DNA from: Shigella phage SGF2
DNA: 64,000 nucleotides
Sequence record: MN148435
Reading direction: 5' to 3' (one strand)
Of this stretch, positions 171 through 7,604 are shown in pieces; positions within the stretch are counted from its first letter, which is position 1; each line of letters opens with the position of its first letter. The notes below the pieces were generated by a model. The model saw nothing but the letters and a program-made list of their open reading frames with translations, did not search any database and was not told where the DNA came from. The position numbers were made by a program, and so were the translations under genes.

Positions 171-1043
171 TTACTTACTAGCCTTAATACAGTTGGCTAA
201 ATTAACGTGAACTGTATAAACAGCATTATCAGCGTTATTGTAAACAGTGGTGGCAAGTATTGATTCATTCATCTGACCATAACTCACCAGATTCGTGACA
301 GCTTTCGCATGGCTGTAACGTTGTACAGTACCAAAAGTGACTAGTTCGGGATCGTTATCACTACGCTTTAAGACTAAATCTTCATTGCCCTGATTATCCA
401 GTGTTTTAGTACTAACAACCAGACCACTGCGGGAAACGTTACTGAATTTAACCTTTAAAACTACTTGATTAGTATCACTATCCGCACCGTTGCAAATCAT
501 CCAACCTTTATTGATGGAACTAACAAAGACGTCAGCGGCATTAGTTGCAGGAGCAGGACTAGCGATAGCCTTATCAGAAAGAGATGTGACTAGTGCACTA
601 ACACCGATCGCTGCAACCAGTGCATAACTTGCCAGATTAATAGACTTCATAATCTTACTTGCAACAGTAGGCTTGATTGGTTGCTTCTTGTTTTTCTTAT
701 TCCATGCTTCAACCATGACAGACAAGCGGGATAATTCAGCTTTAGCATCACGGCAGGATTCAGGCCAACTGTTCTGATTCCAGCTATCTAGATTTGCCTG
801 AATGTAACAGTTTATAGCGTCCTGCATATCAGTAAAGCCGTTATCTTTGAACGTGCTTTCATCTTCACACTGTAAAGCGTTCGCAGTAGAATTGATGATC
901 AAGCAAGCCAACATGATTGAGTTTTTGAATCCTTTACGTGCGCTTTCGTTTTCCATCCACGCATCAGAACTACCAATGGTTAAGCCTAAAGAGGAAAGAC
1001 TTTCGTTTGCTTTGTTCAAGTGGTTAATTGCTACTTTAGACAT
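171..1043 (-). CDS. hypothetical membrane-anchored protein
   Basis: 290-aa ORF; central hydrophobic segment SINLASYALVAAIGVSALVTSL; no recognisable catalytic motif. Confidence 0.5.
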   Translation of the reverse strand: MSKVAINHLNKANESLSSLGLTIGSSDAWMENESARKGFKNSIMLACLIINSTANALQCEDESTFKDNGFTDMQDAINCYIQANLDSWNQNSWPESCRDAKAELSRLSVMVEAWNKKNKKQPIKPTVASKIMKSINLASYALVAAIGVSALVTSLSDKAIASPAPATNAADVFVSSINKGWMICNGADSDTNQVVLKVKFSNVSRSGLVVSTKTLDNQGNEDLVLKRSDNDPELVTFGTVQRYSHAKAVTNLVSYGQMNESILATTVYNNADNAVYTVHVNLANCIKASK

Positions 1044-1230
1044 TTGATAATCCTTCTGGTTAATGGAAATTACAAACTACAATCGCAACTATATAATAAA
1101 GGAAAAGGCTGTCAACCATTTATTTTCTAACTTTCTTACAACTTACTGAAAACTAAAGGAATTTAATTTACTAAACTTTCCACACTCAGAGAATCAGCTT
1201 ACTATCTATTGTTACTTTATAACACTAATC

Positions 1231-1664
1231 CTACGGGTGTTACGCTGGTGCTACGGGTAGCAGACCAACATACCAGGACAAACGGGGAACACACATCCGC
1301 AGAACAGACCACGGGGAAACATGCAAGATAGTGCGGTAATAATATACCACTTAAATAATCATCAACTCATAAAAGAAAAAGACCAACAGAACGCTGAAAA
1401 AGGAAAAGAGTAAAAGAAATACAATCATCCACTTAATTAATACATACATCATTATTGCACTCATAATCATTACTATTGAAACTATTTACATTCAAACTAT
1501 GGGGGATGTGGGCTATTACTTATGGGTATTATTAGCTCTCTTATGGTTGTGCCTATACAGTGCTAGCCTTTCTCTCACTCTTTAAAGGGGAACTAAATAA
1601 ACGGGTAGGTAATGTATTGGGTAGTATACACGGGGAAAGAATAACGGGGAGTAGGCACGGGGAA
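1231..1664. repeat. short direct repeats in non-coding leader (CTACGGGT x2; ACGGGGA(A) x5)
   Basis: CTACGGGT at 1231 and 1251; ACGGGGAA at 1282, 1311, 1630, 1657 and ACGGGGA at 1645; no convincing ORF. Confidence 0.5.
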
Positions 1665-2062
1665 ACGCTGGAACGTGGGAGGAGGTGTAAAGGCATTGCC
1701 AATAACCCTTTTTTAAATGAGGACTCCCCCCTTTTAGGAAACGCGCGGCGAACGCCTAGCCCCACTCGGTCAAATCAGAATTTTAAACTCTTATATATAA
1801 GGTTGAAAGAGAACTTATGTGGAAAATTAAGTTAATCATTAAGCAATTCAAATGCAATCATGAGTACTATCGGATACGCAAAGCTTACGGGGATGAAAGA
1901 GTTCACACCCTTTATAAGTCCACTTGGAGATGTAGTGAATGTGGTAAGCTTAAGCACAGCACATGGATGGATAGGCCTTAATGGAAATAATCTTTTGGTT
2001 AGTAATAGTCTTCTGTTTATTCATCTGCTTCTCTATAGCAAGATGTATCAAGTATGACTAAT

Positions 2063-2188
2063 GACATGGCCTTTATGAAGTCCCCTTTATGACATGCCCT
2101 TTACTTCAGCGTACACGGGTTGTTGGTATGAGGTAGTCATCAAAGATGACGTGGCCTTTACGGGTTGGATATGACTAGCCCTTTATAC
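2063..2188. repeat. cluster of GAC(A/G/T)NG(G/C)CCTTTA-like direct repeats
   Basis: gacatggccttta 2063, cccctttatgacatgcccttta 2082-2103, gacgtggccttta 2148, gactagcccttta 2173; upstream of first + strand gene. Confidence 0.5.
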
Positions 2189-2342
2189 TTTTATTCAGAG
2201 GATAGAATATGAGGTTTTTAAAAGAACTACACTCCTTGATTTATAAGGACATAGTGTACTCAGTATCCCGCAATGCATGGTTCTACCAAAAAGGTGGCAA
2301 CGGTGAATGGGTAGATTGAATCTTATTCAGAGGAGAAGAATT

Positions 2343-3215: not shown

Positions 3216-3689
3216 ATGTTTGGAGAAAACGGAGAACTCACACCTGCACAGGTAGCTGAGATTACAGGAAGATTACCCGGAGTAACGGAAGAACTTGAAG
3301 TCCGTGGTATGAACCCAAGCAATGGGAAGTTTCAAAAGGGAAATAAATTCGGACGACCCAGAGGTAGTAGAGGTAAACTGACACAATTAATGTTGGACCG
3401 TGTTGCTGCAAGTCATTTGTCTCCTGATGAAGTGTTAATTCAAATTTACGAAGATCCTAATATTCCACCTGATCTTAGATTCAAGGCTGCATCAAAAGTT
3501 GCAGATCTGGTATATCCTAAGGCGGCCTCTGTTGAAGTTAAGATTGAGGAAGAGAATGTAATCAACGAAGAATCATTGAATGCACAAATCAAGGACTTCT
3601 TGACTGGAGCACTTGGTATCGACGTTATGCCTCCAGAAGAAGACAACTCTGAGGACGCTGAAAAGGGGGAGGAAGCGGACGAGAGTTAA
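3216..3689 (+). CDS. putative terminase small subunit
   Basis: 157-aa basic N-terminus and acidic C-terminus ORF immediately upstream of large terminase; positional inference only. Confidence 0.35.
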   Translation: MFGENGELTPAQVAEITGRLPGVTEELEVRGMNPSNGKFQKGNKFGRPRGSRGKLTQLMLDRVAASHLSPDEVLIQIYEDPNIPPDLRFKAASKVADLVYPKAASVEVKIEEENVINEESLNAQIKDFLTGALGIDVMPPEEDNSEDAEKGEEADES

Positions 3690-3758: not shown

Positions 3759-5300
3759 ATGTCATTAGATAAACAAATTTATGAAGCTCTAACTGGTAAC
3801 AACCTTAGTGTAGACGAAAAGAAAGCACTATTGAATATGTTGAAAGAGCGTGACCAATGGAGGAAGTATAATAGGATTTTGTCTTTCAAGGCATATGACT
3901 TCCAAAAGAAATTTTATGCAGCAGGATTGAAGCATCGCTTTAGATTCTTGTGTGCAGCGAACCGTGTTGGTAAATCTTATAGCGAGGCATACGAGTTTGC
4001 TTGTCATGTCACAGGTCGCTACCCAACTTGGTGGACAGGTTATAAATTTAAAAGACCTATCTTAGCATGGGCAGTTGGTATTACAGGGGATTCCACAAGG
4101 AAGGTATTGCAAAAGGAATTGTTTGGTACACCTATCGGAAAGGATACAAATTTATTAGGGACAGGTGTCATTCCTCGTGATGCTATCGTCATTGATACGA
4201 TAGAACGAGATGGTAACAAACTTCAAATCGTACAAATCAAACATCAAAATGAGAGAGGAGAGTTTGACGGTTTAAGTACATTAGAATTCCGTTCAACCCA
4301 ACAGGGTGAACACACATTGATGGGTGCAACAGTTGACTACATTTGGTTAGACGAAGAAGATCCATACGAGTCTATGGCTATATTCGCACAGTGCGTCACA
4401 CGTACACTCACAACTAAAGGTCTAGTTACAATTACAGCTACACCAGAGAACGGTTTAACTGAACTGGTAGATAAATTTATGAAAGGTGAAGGGGATGAGA
4501 GCACAGGTTCTCTATATTTCCAGAATGCTTCTTGGTGGGATGCTCATGCAGACCTAGGTGGACACATCACTGACCAAGATATAAAAGATATGACTGAAGG
4601 TATTCCAGCATGGCAGTTAGAGATGCGTTCAAAAGGTATGCCATTGTTAGGAAGTGGTTTGATATATGATGTATCGGATGACACAATTAAATGTGAACCA
4701 TTCGAAATTCCTGATACGTGGAAACGTGTCTGTGCAATTGATATTGGTATTGATCACCCAACTGCTGCTGTTTGGACAGCTTACGACGCAAACACGGATA
4801 CTATCTATGTTTACGACTCATATAAAGAAGGTGGCTTTACTCCAGTGTATCATGCTCCAGCTATTAATGGTCGTGGTCAGTGGATTCCTGTCATCCTACC
4901 GCATGATGCGGACAATACTGAGAAAGGTAGTGGTTCATCTGTTGCTCAATTCTATAAGAATGCAGGAGTTAACGTACAGAGTGAGACCTTCTACAACAAA
5001 ATTGGAATGGATGGTAAAAAGAACTTCTTTGTAGAACCGGGAATCACAGATATCCGAGAAAGAATGATGAGTGGACGCTTTAAAGTCTTTAACACAGCCG
5101 CTAACGCTAAGCTATTCGAAGAGAAAGCTAGATATCACCGTAAGGTTGGTAAGATTATTAAAGAACATGATGACTTAATGGATGCAATGCGCTATTCAGC
5201 GTGCTCTGTTACACATCGTGGTCGCTCTAAGCATGATGTTAGCTACGGAAGCGCTTCTTTGTATGAGGCAAACGTAAGCAGATGGAATCAGAGCTACTAA
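3759..5300 (+). CDS. terL: terminase large subunit
   Basis: 513 aa; Walker A-like CAANRVGKSY, Walker B-like YIWLDEED, C-terminal nuclease-like region with DIGIDHP; GGAGG RBS. Confidence 0.8.
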   Translation: MSLDKQIYEALTGNNLSVDEKKALLNMLKERDQWRKYNRILSFKAYDFQKKFYAAGLKHRFRFLCAANRVGKSYSEAYEFACHVTGRYPTWWTGYKFKRPILAWAVGITGDSTRKVLQKELFGTPIGKDTNLLGTGVIPRDAIVIDTIERDGNKLQIVQIKHQNERGEFDGLSTLEFRSTQQGEHTLMGATVDYIWLDEEDPYESMAIFAQCVTRTLTTKGLVTITATPENGLTELVDKFMKGEGDESTGSLYFQNASWWDAHADLGGHITDQDIKDMTEGIPAWQLEMRSKGMPLLGSGLIYDVSDDTIKCEPFEIPDTWKRVCAIDIGIDHPTAAVWTAYDANTDTIYVYDSYKEGGFTPVYHAPAINGRGQWIPVILPHDADNTEKGSGSSVAQFYKNAGVNVQSETFYNKIGMDGKKNFFVEPGITDIRERMMSGRFKVFNTAANAKLFEEKARYHRKVGKIIKEHDDLMDAMRYSACSVTHRGRSKHDVSYGSASLYEANVSRWNQSY

Positions 5301-5360: not shown

Positions 5361-7604
5361 ATGGCTAAGCAAAAATATAGTGAAGAGGTGTTGGACGAGT
5401 TACGTGTTGACCTTCAACGTCGTTTTAATTACGCTCAAGGTTACGTTGACATGGCTGTTAAGGGCTATGCTCGTGAAGCTTGGGAATATTTCTATGGTAA
5501 CTTACCTGCACCAGTAACTGCTGGCAGCTCTAGTTGGGTAGATCGTACTGTTTGGGAATCTGTTAACGGTACACTGCAAGATATTATTAACGTATTCTGT
5601 TCTGGTGACGAAGCAGTTACCTTCGTAGCTGATAACCAACAGGACTCTGATGCTGCTGATGTAGCAACTAAACTAGTTAACCAAATTCTTCTGCGTGACA
5701 ATCCGGGATACAATATTATCTCCTCTGCTGCACAAGAATGTCTGGTTACTCGTAACTCTTTTATCAAATATTATTGGGATGAGCACACTTCTACTCAAAC
5801 TGAAGAAGCTGAAGGTGTACCACCGGAAGCATTAGCTGCATATGTTCAGGGATTAGAAGCTGGTGGACTTAAGAATCTGGAAATCTTCACTGAAGAAAAT
5901 GAAGATGGTACAGTAGATGTTAAAGTTACTTATGAACAAACTGTTAAACGTGTGAAAGTTGAATACGTTCCTTCAGAGCAAATCTTTGTTGATGAACATG
6001 CTACCTCTTTTGCAGATGCACAATACTTCTGTCATCGTGTACGTCGTTCTAAAGAAGATCTGGTTGCTATGGGCTTCCCTAAAGATGAGATTGAAGCATT
6101 CAACGACTGGACAGACACGATGGATACCACTCAATCTACAGTTGCTTGGTCTCGTACTGACTGGCGTCAGGACATTGATGCTGATATTGGTACAGATACT
6201 GAAGATATCGCTACTATGGTTTGGGTTTATGAGCACTACATCCGTACTGGTGTTCTAGACAAGAATAAAGAGTCTAAACTCTATCAGGTTATTCAAGCTG
6301 GTGAGCATATCCTTCACACTGAAGAAGTAACTCACATTCCGTTTGTAACCTTCTGTCCGTATCCGATTCCGGGTTCCTTCTATGGTCAGTCAGTCTATGA
6401 CATTACGAAAGATATTCAGGATTTACGCACCGCGTTAGTTCGTGGTTATATTGATAACGTCAACAATGCTAACTATGGTCGATACAAAGCACTAGTTGGT
6501 GCATACGATCGTCGCTCTCTGCTTGATAACCGTCCCGGTGGAGTGGTTGAAATGGAACGTCAGGACGCTATTGACCTGTTCCCATACCATAACCTACCTC
6601 AAGGTATCGACGGCCTCCTAGGTATGTCTGAGGAGCTTAAAGAGACACGTACCGGTGTAACTAAACTTGGCATGGGTATCAACCCTGATGTGTTTAAGAA
6701 TGATAACGCTTATGCAACCGTAGGCTTGATGATGAATGCCGCACAGAACCGTCTCCGTATGGTATGTCGTAACATTGCTCACAATGGTATGGTTGAATTG
6801 ATGCGTGGTATTTACAGCCTTATCAGAGAAAACGGTGAAGTTCCTATTGAGGTACAAACCCCTCGTGGTATGGTTCAGGTTAATCCGAAACAATTACCAG
6901 CTCGTCACAATCTTCAAGTTGTTGTAGCTATCTCTCCTAATGAGAAAGCAGAACGTGCACAGAAACTGATTAGTTTGAAACAGCTGATTGCAGCAGATGC
7001 ACAGTTAGCACCTCTCTTTGGTTTGGAGCAAGACCGCTACATGACTGCACAGATCTTTGAGTTGATGGGTATTAAGGACACTCACAAATACCTACTGCCT
7101 CTGGAACAGTATCAGCCTCCTGAGCCGTCTCCGATGGAAATCCTCCAGCTCGAGATGACTAAAGCACAGGTTGAGAACGTACAGGCTTCTTCTCAGAAGA
7201 TGATTGCTGATGCATTCGACCAACGTGAACGTACTACATTCGAACAGCAGAAAGCTGCGGATGAATTAAGTCTGCGTCAGGAAGAGTTGCAGTTCAAGCA
7301 AGAAAATGCAGCAGATGCTATGACTCTGGAAAACCGTAAAGAAGATAACAATGCAACTCTGGAACAAGCTAAGCACAAGTTAGCTCTTATGCAACAGCAG
7401 GTCCGTCAGTATGAGTCTGTACTGAAAGAATTGCAGATGGTTATGGAGCATCAGGTAGACCAAGAGAAGATTGTTCAGCAATCTCGTGTTCAGGATAAGA
7501 CTTTGGAACTCCAGAAGAAAGAAGCAAATGTAACTAAGAAAGAGCAACAAGCTTCTCTCAAAGATTCACGGATTCCAGGCAAACGTCTTGGAAGTAAAAA
7601 GTAA
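5361..7604 (+). CDS. portal protein
   Basis: 747-aa ORF directly downstream of terL with long C-terminal coiled-coil-like region; size and position. Confidence 0.6.
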   Translation: MAKQKYSEEVLDELRVDLQRRFNYAQGYVDMAVKGYAREAWEYFYGNLPAPVTAGSSSWVDRTVWESVNGTLQDIINVFCSGDEAVTFVADNQQDSDAADVATKLVNQILLRDNPGYNIISSAAQECLVTRNSFIKYYWDEHTSTQTEEAEGVPPEALAAYVQGLEAGGLKNLEIFTEENEDGTVDVKVTYEQTVKRVKVEYVPSEQIFVDEHATSFADAQYFCHRVRRSKEDLVAMGFPKDEIEAFNDWTDTMDTTQSTVAWSRTDWRQDIDADIGTDTEDIATMVWVYEHYIRTGVLDKNKESKLYQVIQAGEHILHTEEVTHIPFVTFCPYPIPGSFYGQSVYDITKDIQDLRTALVRGYIDNVNNANYGRYKALVGAYDRRSLLDNRPGGVVEMERQDAIDLFPYHNLPQGIDGLLGMSEELKETRTGVTKLGMGINPDVFKNDNAYATVGLMMNAAQNRLRMVCRNIAHNGMVELMRGIYSLIRENGEVPIEVQTPRGMVQVNPKQLPARHNLQVVVAISPNEKAERAQKLISLKQLIAADAQLAPLFGLEQDRYMTAQIFELMGIKDTHKYLLPLEQYQPPEPSPMEILQLEMTKAQVENVQASSQKMIADAFDQRERTTFEQQKAADELSLRQEELQFKQENAADAMTLENRKEDNNATLEQAKHKLALMQQQVRQYESVLKELQMVMEHQVDQEKIVQQSRVQDKTLELQKKEANVTKKEQQASLKDSRIPGKRLGSKK

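Follow-up and report, generated by a model that had tools for sequence, protein, structure and literature searches.

Genes and promoters at the locus

SGF2 is a phiEco32-like (Kuravirus) E. coli podophage. In the window, by which we mean the whole 64-kb stretch of its DNA that was analysed, the original prediction had taken the 1.26 kb rightward of position 1043 for a single long non-coding leader of the adjacent terminase, with no convincing ORF and with short repeats. The features that we assign to this region are collected in Table 1. The leftward ORF at its edge is the counterpart of phi32_128 (75944-76816 of phiEco32) and of the last CDS of YF01. The early promoter beside this ORF has the same sequence as the published SU10/phiEco32 early promoter; in SU10, an early promoter is listed upstream of CDS125 and is said to resemble that of phiEco32 (PMC4281155, Table S2). 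It is the only place where the sigma-70 geometry (-35 and -10 hexamers with a 16-18-bp spacer) occurs. The putative weak promoter in the left-end leader was not picked up by the consensus promoter scan. The SU10 stretch homologous to this leader is listed as holding a potential sigma-70 promoter (PMC4281155, Table S2), and the mean identity across ~1765-1804 is 0.92-0.98.

The region also holds small genes. The gene 1 ORF is intact in 20/20 genomes, 19 of them found by motif search and the diverged Bas87 copy taken from its annotated CDS, and it comes in two protein alleles. Its product has a C-x-H...C-x-x-C pattern with a zinc-ribbon-like look, and the variable columns fall 27/20/44 of 54 on the three codon positions. 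By this conservation and its family match, 1817-1981 is a conserved gene, which overturns the view that no ORF here is convincing, and the first rightward gene starts at 1817 and not at about 2343. The ORF at 2209-2319 follows a good ribosome-binding site, is annotated as a CDS in two relatives, DE5 and rybdy3, and gave no family match in protein-family searches; it probably is a small gene that only some relatives have. Between these two lies the hydrophobic candidate ORF, which is poorly conserved and indel-rich (identity 0.35-0.46). The truly non-coding parts are 1044-1816 and ~2062-2208.

Table 1. Features at the SGF2 junction (window positions; DTR, direct terminal repeat; values with + or - relative to the DTR)
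Feature	Position	Strand	Remarks
Leftward ORF	171..1043	-	phrog_36409 match, E 4e-179
Sigma-70 early promoter, TTGACA-16-TATAGT	1088..1115	-	drives the leftward early (right-end) operon; scan score 11/12
Family A upstream cluster, ACGGG(T/G)	1233, 1253, 1282, 1311 (1233..1316)	+	spacings 20, 29, 29
Two highly conserved non-coding blocks	~1290-1360 and 1390-1504		from identity across 20 genomes
Left DTR boundary core, CT|AGCC	1563..1568	+	reads ...cagtgCT|AGCCTTTC in most of 20 genomes
DTR, 193 bp	1565..1757	+	homology to phiEco32 and YF01 DTRs; predicted left end 1565, right end 1757
Family A inside DTR	ACGGGT 1601; ACGGGG 1630, 1644, 1657 (1601..1662)	+	DTR +37, +66, +80, +93
Internal DTR repeat, CCCTTTTTTA, 10 nt, CCCCCCTTTTA	1706..1736	+	encloses the ATGAGGACTCCC core (1716-1727)
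Right DTR boundary core, CT|AGCC	1756..1761	+	near-invariant AGCCCCACTCGGTCAAATCAGAATTTTAAAC directly after
Left-end leader	1758..1816	+	putative weak sigma-70 promoter (~1769-1801) and gene 1 ribosome-binding site
Gene 1 homologue, 54 aa, early gene	1817..1981	+	phrog_7696 match, E 1.6e-16
Hydrophobic ORF, 26 aa, candidate coding	1981..2061	+	TAATG stop-start overlaps with neighbours; read from sequence
Family B array, five units	2061, 2075, 2089, 2146, 2171 (2061..2185)	+	spacings 14, 14, 57, 25; ~+497 to +621
Family A downstream copies, ACGGGT	2115, 2160 (+551, +596)	+	interleaved with family B; one fused as CCTTTACGGGT
36-aa ORF	2209..2319	+	ribosome-binding context TTATTCAGAGGA identical to that of the next gene
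Early gene, 84 aa	2343..2597	+	phrog_12698 match, E 7e-51; annotated in all relatives

Genome-end junction and terminal repeat

Positions 1565-1757 align without gaps to all 193 columns of the annotated DTR of YF01, and to all 193 positions of the phiEco32 terminus with a few small gaps. In the records of both these phages the first 193 bp are identical to the last 193 bp, and the ends of both genomes have been physically mapped (PMC9965538), while those of SU10 are visible as read drop-offs (PMC4281155). Several GenBank records start at what corresponds to window position 1565-1566, and those of phiEco32, YF01 and SU10 end at ~1757, so the termini of related phages coincide with the two boundaries. 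Since 1565-1757 aligns with a mapped DTR, the 1.26-kb region is, by homology, a collapsed genome-end junction made of right-end unique DNA, a single DTR copy and left-end unique DNA. The DTR occurs once in the window because the assembly was circularly collapsed and the two genome ends were joined. A genome terminus or terminal repeat, one of several candidates in the original prediction, is what the homology bears out, and the supposed leader gives way to two joined ends with small genes. The DTR is already known from phiEco32-like phages and is identified here by homology; the physical ends of SGF2 itself most likely lie at 1565 and 1757. The repeat is flanked by the phi32_128 homologue on the left and by the homologues of gene 1, the small terminase and the large terminase on the right, with the terminase genes 1.5-2 kb right of the junction.

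SGF2 shares the DTR sequence family, the 193-bp length and the boundaries with phiEco32, SU10, YF01 and Paul (Kuravirus, Gordonclarkvirinae), and it shares the internal CCCTTTTTTA repeat, the flanking genes and the early promoter with phiEco32-like phages. Its junction DNA is mosaic, with ~75-88% identity to relatives, yet its large terminase is 100% identical to that of NJ01. Compared with these relatives, SGF2 has an extra (fourth) upstream ACGGG copy, and five CCTTTA units where they have 3-4. In addition, the ends of phiEco32, YF01 and SU10 are measured, whereas those of SGF2 are placed by sequence homology.

The boundary core CT|AGCC is found at both DTR edges in most of 20 genomes. In 29/30 genomes the right core keeps a fixed distance of +38 to +40 from the invariant ATGAGGACTCCC, and the left core precedes the right one by 193 bp in 17/30 and by 192-194 bp in 19/30. 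ATGAGGACTCCC is the most conserved core of the DTR, present in all 30 genomes examined and single-copy in the window. The arrangement around it, CCCTTTTTTA-10 nt-CCCTTTTTTA with a varying T-run length, has been described by the SU10 authors (PMC4281155). CTAGCC occurs 16 times in the genome against 22 expected; it is not rare, and therefore cannot by itself specify cutting.

The two conserved blocks upstream of the DTR have a mean identity of 0.9-0.98 among 20 genomes, and that at 1390-1504 is AT-rich and A-skewed (local GC 0.30, AT skew +0.34). We rejected a structured RNA or DNA reading of the region: Rfam (at gathering thresholds, then with E up to 1) and ARAGORN matched no known RNA or tRNA, and the folds are no more stable than those of shuffled sequences (z +2.7 for the DTR, -1.5 for the family B array and +1.3 for the conserved block). 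A search of IMG/VR added only five loci, most of which duplicate GenBank phages.

Two families of one-strand repeats

Three repeat families had been predicted, but the first two are one family, ACGGG(G/T) (family A), with a common strand and spacing series. Both copies of CTACGGGT, at 1231 and 1251, are confirmed and are the only two in 64 kb. The five predicted ACGGGGA copies are found at 1282, 1311, 1630 and 1657 as given and, for the fourth, at 1644 instead of 1645; a sixth, at 1887, had been missed. These six are all the ACGGGGA copies in the window on either strand, against 2.7 expected, and 7 of 100 shuffles reach at least six, which makes the count unremarkable. What is remarkable about ACGGGGA is its clustering and strand bias. 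Because the ACGGGG at 1887 is inside coding sequence (codons Y-G-D), it should not be counted, and the region has ten non-coding family A copies, all on the plus strand: the upstream cluster, four in the DTR and two downstream. Within the window, 11 of the 16 plus-strand matches to ACGGG[GT] fall in this region, which makes up 2% of it (binomial P ~7e-16), as against none of the four minus-strand matches.

The repeats are conserved in relatives, and both families are present in 20/20 close genomes, in the same places and on one strand only. The upstream cluster lies at -331 to -253 relative to the DTR, in right-end unique DNA. At this site 18/20 genomes have 2-4 copies of ACGGG[GT] at 27-30-bp spacing, and Bas92 and Bas93 have ACGGGA. 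The copy number varies among genomes, with a 20-bp duplication in SGF2, and minus-strand copies number zero. Inside the DTR, ACGGG[GT] is found at +37, +66, +80 and +93 in 16/20 genomes. In Bas92 and Bas93 it survives at +37 and +66 alone, with ACGGGA in its place at +80 and +93, while in Bas89 the copies stand at +37, +67, +95 and +126, the motif persisting where flanks and spacing diverge. Bas87 has ACGGGT at +37 and ATGGGT at +66, +94 and +109. It has ATGGGT at the upstream, DTR and downstream locations alike (10 copies, none on the minus strand), and such a switch at all three is expected if a single factor reads every copy. This suggests one shared reader for all copies of family A. Between -750 and +900 relative to the DTR, all 20 genomes are free of minus-strand copies, and A(C/T)GGG is strictly one-stranded in five distant metagenomic relatives as well. 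The spacings cluster at 13-14 and 27-30 bp, although these statistics repeat one ancestral arrangement because close relatives are not independent samples.

Family B, RTGA-N5-CCTTTA, is a 15-16-nt unit with five matches against 0.37 expected, a number that 0/100 shuffles reached. The five CCCTTTA-centred repeats of the original prediction are real units, but their proposed form, GACNNG[GC]CCTTTA, fits four of them and not the one at 2075. Defining the sites by CCTTTA, we find units here in 20/20 genomes, always on the plus strand and 81 altogether, and the RTGA 5 nt upstream is near-invariant (T 77/81, G 77/81, A 70/81). The units could also be read as coupled mini-ORFs (M-T-W-P-L-stop and the like, with ATGA/TAATG overlaps). 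We rejected this, since the peptide reading is lost in relatives: Bas91, for example, has TGG in place of TGA in a unit. The DNA motif is kept among relatives; the peptide reading is not.

Possible functions of the repeats

With moderate confidence, we read the locus as a concatemer junction with a T7-style DTR, in which the short repeats would be strand-specific cis sites read by phage protein(s) in maturation or packaging. From left to right, the junction holds the early sigma-70 promoter of the right-end operon, ~450 bp of right-end unique DNA, the DTR, and left-end DNA with small early genes, and the DTR would be cut on each side within the common CT|AGCC core. Family A occupies the right-end flank together with the left half of the DTR, and family B the left-end flank. 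That the repeats are protein-binding sites we infer, and phage-encoded protein(s) would read the arrays during concatemer maturation and packaging. By docking or orienting the terminase complex, the arrays could place its cuts at the two boundaries, which are separated by 193 bp. Primary recognition would most likely fall to the invariant ATGAGGACTCCC core, 39 bp left of the right cut, and the arrays would serve as accessory sites that possibly wrap DNA. Concatemer maturation or packaging is the most likely function of the arrays, and their position and their likeness to T7 make such a role, which the original prediction had listed as a pac site, plausible.

A more specific form of this model, which we regard as doubtful, is a bipartite signal that gives maturation its direction. 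In it, the right-end side would be marked by one-strand ACGGG(G/T) arrays and the left-end side by RTGA-N5-CCTTTA arrays, each with a period of ~14 bp, and the phage protein(s) would set the two CT|AGCC cuts 193 bp apart. If true, this would explain concatemer processing in DTR phages without their own RNA polymerase and, by extension, offer a role for the long-unexplained heptamer arrays of T7. On this model, natural variation in the specificity of the reader would lie behind the ACGGG-to-ATGGG switches seen in some lineages. One candidate reader of family A was the small terminase. In close relatives, ATGGG accompanies E33 and ACGGG accompanies N33, Bas87 has the private substitutions N33E, N36T and Q40T, and the E and N states are interleaved on the small-terminase similarity matrix. 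In a semi-blind test on metagenomic contigs, residues 33-40 failed to co-vary with whether the motif has C or T: L037 and L034 share this small-terminase segment, yet L037 carries ATGGG, and L038 (D33) carries ACGGG. We therefore rejected the small terminase as the reader, as these two contigs break the E33/N33 rule, and the association is most simply linkage.

A replication origin, also among the original candidates, seems unlikely. Under this reading a phage initiator would use the ACGGG copies as iterons and the AT-rich block 1390-1504 as an unwinding element, and replication would start beside the terminal repeat. The direct repeats at 27-30-bp spacing do adjoin this highly conserved stretch of GC 0.30, the cumulative GC skew has its minimum at ~1500, and secondary structure on the DTR strand is unusually scarce (z +2.7). 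However, the repeat core of 5-7 nt is far below the 17-22 bp of typical iterons, no initiator gene is adjacent, and the copies run into the DTR and past it as far as the left-end DNA, an extent that an origin would not need. Gene orientation changes, and the genome ends are joined, at the very place where the skew switches, so that the switch is uninformative on an origin. T7 shares the repeat layout, but its primary replication origin lies elsewhere in the genome than its terminal-repeat arrays.

Rather less likely still is control of transcription, in which the repeats would be operator or activator sites, or promoter parts for host RNA polymerase or the phage sigma factor gp36, and would control the divergent early operons or transcription across the junction, in analogy to the T7 promoters phiOR and phiOL. 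The region does lie between divergent early transcription units, and family B falls within the left early operon, after gene 1 and before the genes that follow it. In addition, TATAATG(TA) comes after an upstream ACGGGT copy in Bas87, in Bas89 and in several of the distant relatives. Early promoters for host RNA polymerase, as had been predicted, do occur here, at 1088-1115 and putatively at ~1769-1801, but they are distinct from the repeats: no repeat unit has sigma-70 promoter geometry in the promoter scan, and we rejected the repeats as sigma-70 promoters on this ground. Family A lies 120-230 bp from the promoter at 1088-1115, on both sides of the physical DNA end. As for gp36, whose element is tAATGTAtA, the +37 copy of family A is followed at 1610 by TAATGTAT, which fits the consensus, but this is not kept in about half of the relatives, reading TAATGAAT in phiEco32, YF01 and NJ01 among others. 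ACGGG as an upstream element of gp36 promoters was likewise rejected, since it precedes none of those known in the window.

Very unlikely, finally, is a role in genome entry or end protection, in which the arrays close to the two termini would be bound by a host factor or by a protein that is ejected or made early, so that DNA enters in controlled steps or the ends are protected from RecBCD. The arrays do lie within ~650 bp of each physical end, between it and the first inward-facing promoter, much as the T7 array lies between the terminal repeat and promoter A1, but the motif is ACGGG or ATGGG in phages of the same host, which argues against a host factor. By the Chi orientation rule, the Chi-like GCTGGTGC at 1243 faces the way that would act on RecBCD coming in from the right end, but it differs from Chi at one position, and most relatives lack the 20-bp stretch around it or align poorly there (identity 0.18).

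Significance and comparison with known systems

How phages with short DTRs recognise and duplicate their terminal repeat is poorly understood, and phiEco32-like phages cannot use the mechanism of T7, which relies on a phage RNA polymerase, according to the SU10 authors (PMC4281155). For maturation or packaging as the preferred reading, the locus offers targets for mutagenesis and binding experiments: conserved one-strand arrays with natural C/T variants of the motif, an invariant core 39 bp from the right cut, and CT|AGCC at both cuts. The same features could aid the design of packaging signals for engineered Kuravirus therapeutic phages. For annotation, the record is a circularly permuted assembly, and its apparent leader is the DTR with small early genes and not one untranslated region. 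The arrays appear to be undescribed but of a known kind, around a DTR that was already known; our literature search found no description of them, and the original phiEco32 papers may mention them.

Two further phages were compared. LUZ24 is a more distant DTR phage whose large terminase is related, and it has no comparable array. In phage 7-11 a different array, of ATCAGTGTA, precedes the small-terminase gene; as independent lineages, both are uninformative.

T7 gives the closest likeness. All 13 copies of its heptamer CCTAAAG are on the plus strand, and the minus strand has none; they stand at -106 and -77, at +17, +41 and +60 inside the terminal repeat, and at +175 to +332. The arrays around the terminal repetition were reportedly named SRL and SRR by Dunn and Studier in 1983. 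Both T7 and SGF2 thus have a 6-7-nt one-strand motif upstream of, within the first part of, and downstream of the terminal repeat (160 bp in T7, 193 bp in SGF2). The downstream array has a 13-bp period in T7 and the array just downstream in SGF2 one of ~13-14 bp. In addition, both phages have similar sequences at the two repeat boundaries, and arrays between the terminus and the first early promoters. SGF2 has two motif families where T7 has one, and CCTAAAG is unrelated to ACGGG(G/T) and CCTTTA, so the likeness is architectural only. Unlike T7, SGF2 lacks a phage RNA polymerase, and hence has no phiOL/phiOR promoters and no polymerase pause at the junction, and its terminase genes are near the opposite genome end relative to T7. 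To our knowledge, the function of the T7 heptamer arrays is unproven, and the analogy therefore carries architecture, not mechanism.

Terminases that recognise several sites are known from other phages, with the R-sites of lambda cosB, the hexamers of P1 pac and the pacL/pacR boxes of SPP1. The exact DTR ends of SGF2 contrast with the cohesive or headful ends of these systems. Like them, however, it has several short oriented repeats beside the predicted cut site and near the terminase genes, and its repeat spacing is off the helical period, which would be compatible with DNA wrapping on a small-terminase ring.

Results

The region spans the joined genome ends

About 98 GenBank phage records match the first 6 kb of the window at 80-99% identity, nearly all of them from phiEco32-group phages of Escherichia (Kuravirus, Gordonclarkvirinae). 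No tRNA or Rfam families were found in the window. With region 1044-2343 as the query, positions 1-714 matched phiEco32, and the match broke off precisely where the phiEco32 record ends on its right side. The YF01 and SU10 matches stop at the record end in the same way, the matched end of YF01 carries a direct terminal repeat (DTR) annotation, and query position 522-523 is the start of several other GenBank records. A genome terminus or terminal repeat was among the candidates of the original prediction, and the comparison with related termini upholds it: the record ends of phiEco32, YF01 and SU10 fall here, and window 1565-1757 is homologous to the mapped phiEco32/YF01 DTR. In both the phiEco32 and YF01 records the first 193 bp equal the last 193 bp; the window segment aligns with the YF01 DTR in all 193 columns with zero gaps, and end to end with that of phiEco32. 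The phiEco32 ends were mapped experimentally, its 193-bp DTR by restriction profiling, primer walking and subcloning; a 193-bp DTR was obtained for YF01 from full-length nanopore reads and is also given for Paul (PMC9965538). The SU10 repeat is also 193 bp long, and its reads drop off sharply, indicating blunt ends (PMC4281155).

The window holds a single DTR copy, which lies between the last right-end gene on the left and the left-end genes on the right. Therefore, the window is a circularly collapsed assembly of joined genome ends. From the homology, we infer that the physical ends of this phage would lie at 1565 (left) and 1757 (right). The DTR plus strand is G-rich (GC skew +0.38), has three GGGG runs and one GGG inside ~50 nt, and folds worse than 200/200 shuffles (z +2.7). 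The genome-end region shows sharp mosaicism: the large terminase protein matches its NJ01 counterpart at 100% identity, and the junction DNA (1044-2343), only 1.5 kb from the terminase gene, is ~75% identical to that of NJ01.

Features of the junction region and its neighbours (window coordinates)
Feature	Position	Strand	Remarks
Last right-end gene	171-1043	minus	phi32_128 homologue; left of DTR
Sigma-70 promoter	1088-1115	minus	TTGACA-16-TATAGT
Left boundary core CT/AGCC	1563-1568		...cagtgCT/AGCCTTTC
Right boundary core CT/AGCC	1756-1761		...GCGxCT/AGCCCCACTC
54-aa gene	1817-1981		C-x-H...C-x-x-C pattern; intact in 20/20 genomes, two protein alleles
26-aa hydrophobic ORF	1981-2061		TAATG overlaps with neighbours; poorly conserved
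Family B	2061, 2075, 2089, 2146, 2171		15-nt unit RTGA-N5-CCTTTA
ORF	2209-2319		ribosome-binding context as for next gene; annotated in DE5, rybdy3
Large terminase gene	3759-5300		downstream of junction region
Portal gene	5361-7604		downstream of junction region

One core, CT/AGCC, is common to both DTR edges. Relative to the invariant ATGAGGACTCCC, the right core keeps a fixed position, +38 to +40, in 29 of 30 genomes. Among the 30 examined, the left core precedes it by 193 bp in 17 and by 192-194 bp in 19; Bas89 and locus L008 have a distance of 205-206 bp, and Bas87 and ECBP2 one of 249 bp, which predicts longer DTRs of ~205 and ~249 bp, respectively. CTAGCC by itself is not rare across the genome, so further determinants must contribute to cutting, for which the invariant ATGAGGACTCCC core is an obvious candidate.

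Two repeat families flank and enter the DTR

Three repeat families had been described here. The repeats are real, including CTACGGGT at both 1231 and 1251, but the first two families share a core, ACGGG(G/T), with 11 of its 16 plus-strand copies clustered inside 2% of the window (P ~7e-16), and are therefore one (family A). ACGGGGA stands at 1282, 1311, 1630 and 1657 as predicted; the fourth copy is at 1644, not 1645, and a sixth, at 1887, falls within a gene, where it encodes Y-G-D, and is better left out of the count. All six copies in the 64 kb are on the plus strand, an unremarkable total (2.7 expected). The third family, described as CCCTTTA-centred, keeps its five units under a redefined consensus, RTGA-N5-CCTTTA (family B; 0.37 matches expected). 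This phage and rybdy3 owe their fourth upstream ACGGG copy to a 20-bp local duplication (1222-1258), a segment that also holds, at 1243, a Chi-like GCTGGTGC differing from Chi at one position.

The conservation on which the prediction depended was found for both families in 20/20 genomes, namely the window and 19 relatives including phiEco32, YF01, NJ01 and eight BASEL phages. Family A occupies the same three locations in every one: 2-4 copies upstream, spaced 27-30 bp apart between -420 and -250 relative to the DTR start (ACGGGA, not ACGGG(G/T), in Bas92 and Bas93); four inside the DTR, at +37, +66, +80 and +93 (ACGGG(G/T) in 16/20); and, as a rule, two in the downstream array. The minus strand from -750 to +900 has zero copies in all 20. 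Bas89 keeps the motif with drifted flanks and spacing (+37, +67, +95, +126). Bas87 has ATGGGT(A) instead: 10 copies, spread over all three locations (upstream, DTR and downstream) and absent from the minus strand, as expected if a single factor reads every copy. Across the 81 family B sites, defined by CCTTTA, the RTGA part 5 nt before hardly varies (T 77, G 77, A 70), in contrast to the bases between the two and to any peptide reading, and the constraint therefore acts at the nucleotide level.

Five distant metagenomic relatives, found via small-terminase homologues (67-86% identity), retain the layout, with strictly one-stranded A(C/T)GGG arrays and a larger gene-poor gap of ~3 kb in each. 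In loci L032-L038 this gap lies upstream of the small-terminase gene, and several upstream ACGGGT copies have TATAATG 4-6 nt behind them, possibly a rightward promoter in a position resembling that of T7 phiOR. Salmonella phage 7-11 carries a one-stranded array of a different motif, (A)TCAGTG(TA), with 4-6 copies (1357-1654) just upstream of the small-terminase homologue. A ~2.8 kb non-coding span runs across the ends of the 7-11 record.

Small genes and promoters

The claim that the leader has no convincing ORF fails on the conserved 54-aa gene and probably also on the ORF at 2209. Nineteen copies of the former came from a motif search and the diverged Bas87 copy from an annotated CDS. Its variable columns by codon position (27/20/44 of 54) show a third-position bias, unlike non-coding controls; it matches phrog_7696 (E 1.6e-16) and is the counterpart of SU10 CDS1. 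The phiEco32 copy lies at 253-417 (+253 to +417). GenBank places phi32_1 at 296-496 and draws phi32_2 and phi32_3 over the CCTTTA array; these three annotations look doubtful. A near-continuous stop-start overlap chain (TAATG, ATGA) at 1979-2212 links gene 1, the 26-aa ORF, mini-ORFs of the CCTTTA units and ORF 2209. The mini-ORFs (MTWPL-stop, MKSPL-stop, etc.) were rejected as peptides, their sequence not being kept in relatives.

Early promoters had also been proposed, and the sigma-70 promoter matches the published early promoter of SU10 and phiEco32. The near-invariant stretch right of the DTR is the counterpart of a potential SU10 sigma-70 promoter before CDS1. A second promoter-like site (1069-1097, plus strand, ATTACA-17-TATAAT, 10/12) faces the early promoter, directed toward the DTR, and may be a mere mirror of its AT-rich -10 region. 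Inside the DTR, the consensus TAATGTAT for gp36, the phage sigma factor, lies at 1610-1617, 3 nt past an ACGGGT copy, and is oriented to read rightward through the right cut site; it is present in about half of the relatives, the alternative form belonging to a linked haplotype. An AT-rich, A-skewed non-coding block at 1390-1504 is 90-98% identical over 20 genomes, above neighbouring genes, and includes a DnaA-box-like ATCATCCAC and an invariant AACTATGGGG.

Discussion

The best-supported reading of the arrays, by position and by analogy with T7, is that of putative cis-acting sites in the maturation and packaging of concatemers. A replication origin has some support, as the repeats adjoin the conserved AT-rich block; however, the repeat core is very short, family A copies cross the DTR, and the skew is uninformative. 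A transcriptional role is weakened: the repeat units lack sigma-70 promoter geometry, the gp36-consensus site of the DTR reads TAATGAAT in phiEco32, YF01 and NJ01, and known gp36 promoters in the window have no ACGGG upstream. Within the reach of the tools, a structured or known RNA is excluded, with no Rfam match and junction elements folding no better than shuffles.

The small terminase (3216-3689) was considered as the reader of family A. Conservation of its N-terminal segment, G-x-F-x-K-G-N-K-F-G-R-P-(K/R)-G-S-R-G-K, extends over 111 homologues, down to ~45% identity, and the segment resembles a basic DNA-binding arm; residues 33-40, which immediately precede it, are polymorphic (NPSNGKFQ, EPSTGKFT, NPNTGRFQ, others). 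Bas87 has three private substitutions (N33E, N36T, Q40T) just before the arm KGNKFGRPRGSRGK. ECBP2 (E33) carries ATGGGT and L008 (N33) ACGGGG, the E and N states being interleaved on the similarity matrix. This co-variation did not hold up in a semi-blind test on additional contigs: L037 and L034 share the segment, yet the L037 motif is ATGGG, and L038 (D33) has many ACGGG copies, which breaks the proposal. Therefore, the association of residue 33 with the motif among close relatives is most simply linkage.

Already published are the early promoter and the DTR with its internal CCCTTTTTTA repeat. We found no description of the ACGGG/CCTTTA arrays, the shared CT/AGCC core or the ACGGG/ATGGG variants in the literature covered, which excludes the two primary phiEco32 papers.

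By their architecture, the arrays appear to belong with T7-style repeat arrays around a terminal repeat. At the T7 ends, the heptamer CCTAAAG occurs 13 times on one strand only: at -106 and -77, at +17, +41 and +60 inside the 160-bp terminal repeat, and from +175 to +332 with a 13-bp period. Repeats thus lie upstream, inside and downstream of the terminal repeat in both phages. Spacings here cluster at 13-14 and 27-30 bp, although kin genomes repeat one ancestral arrangement. Unlike T7, phiEco32-like phages lack their own RNA polymerase, as the SU10 authors pointed out (PMC4281155). This phage has two motif families, and CCTAAAG is unrelated to either; the likeness to T7 is architectural only.
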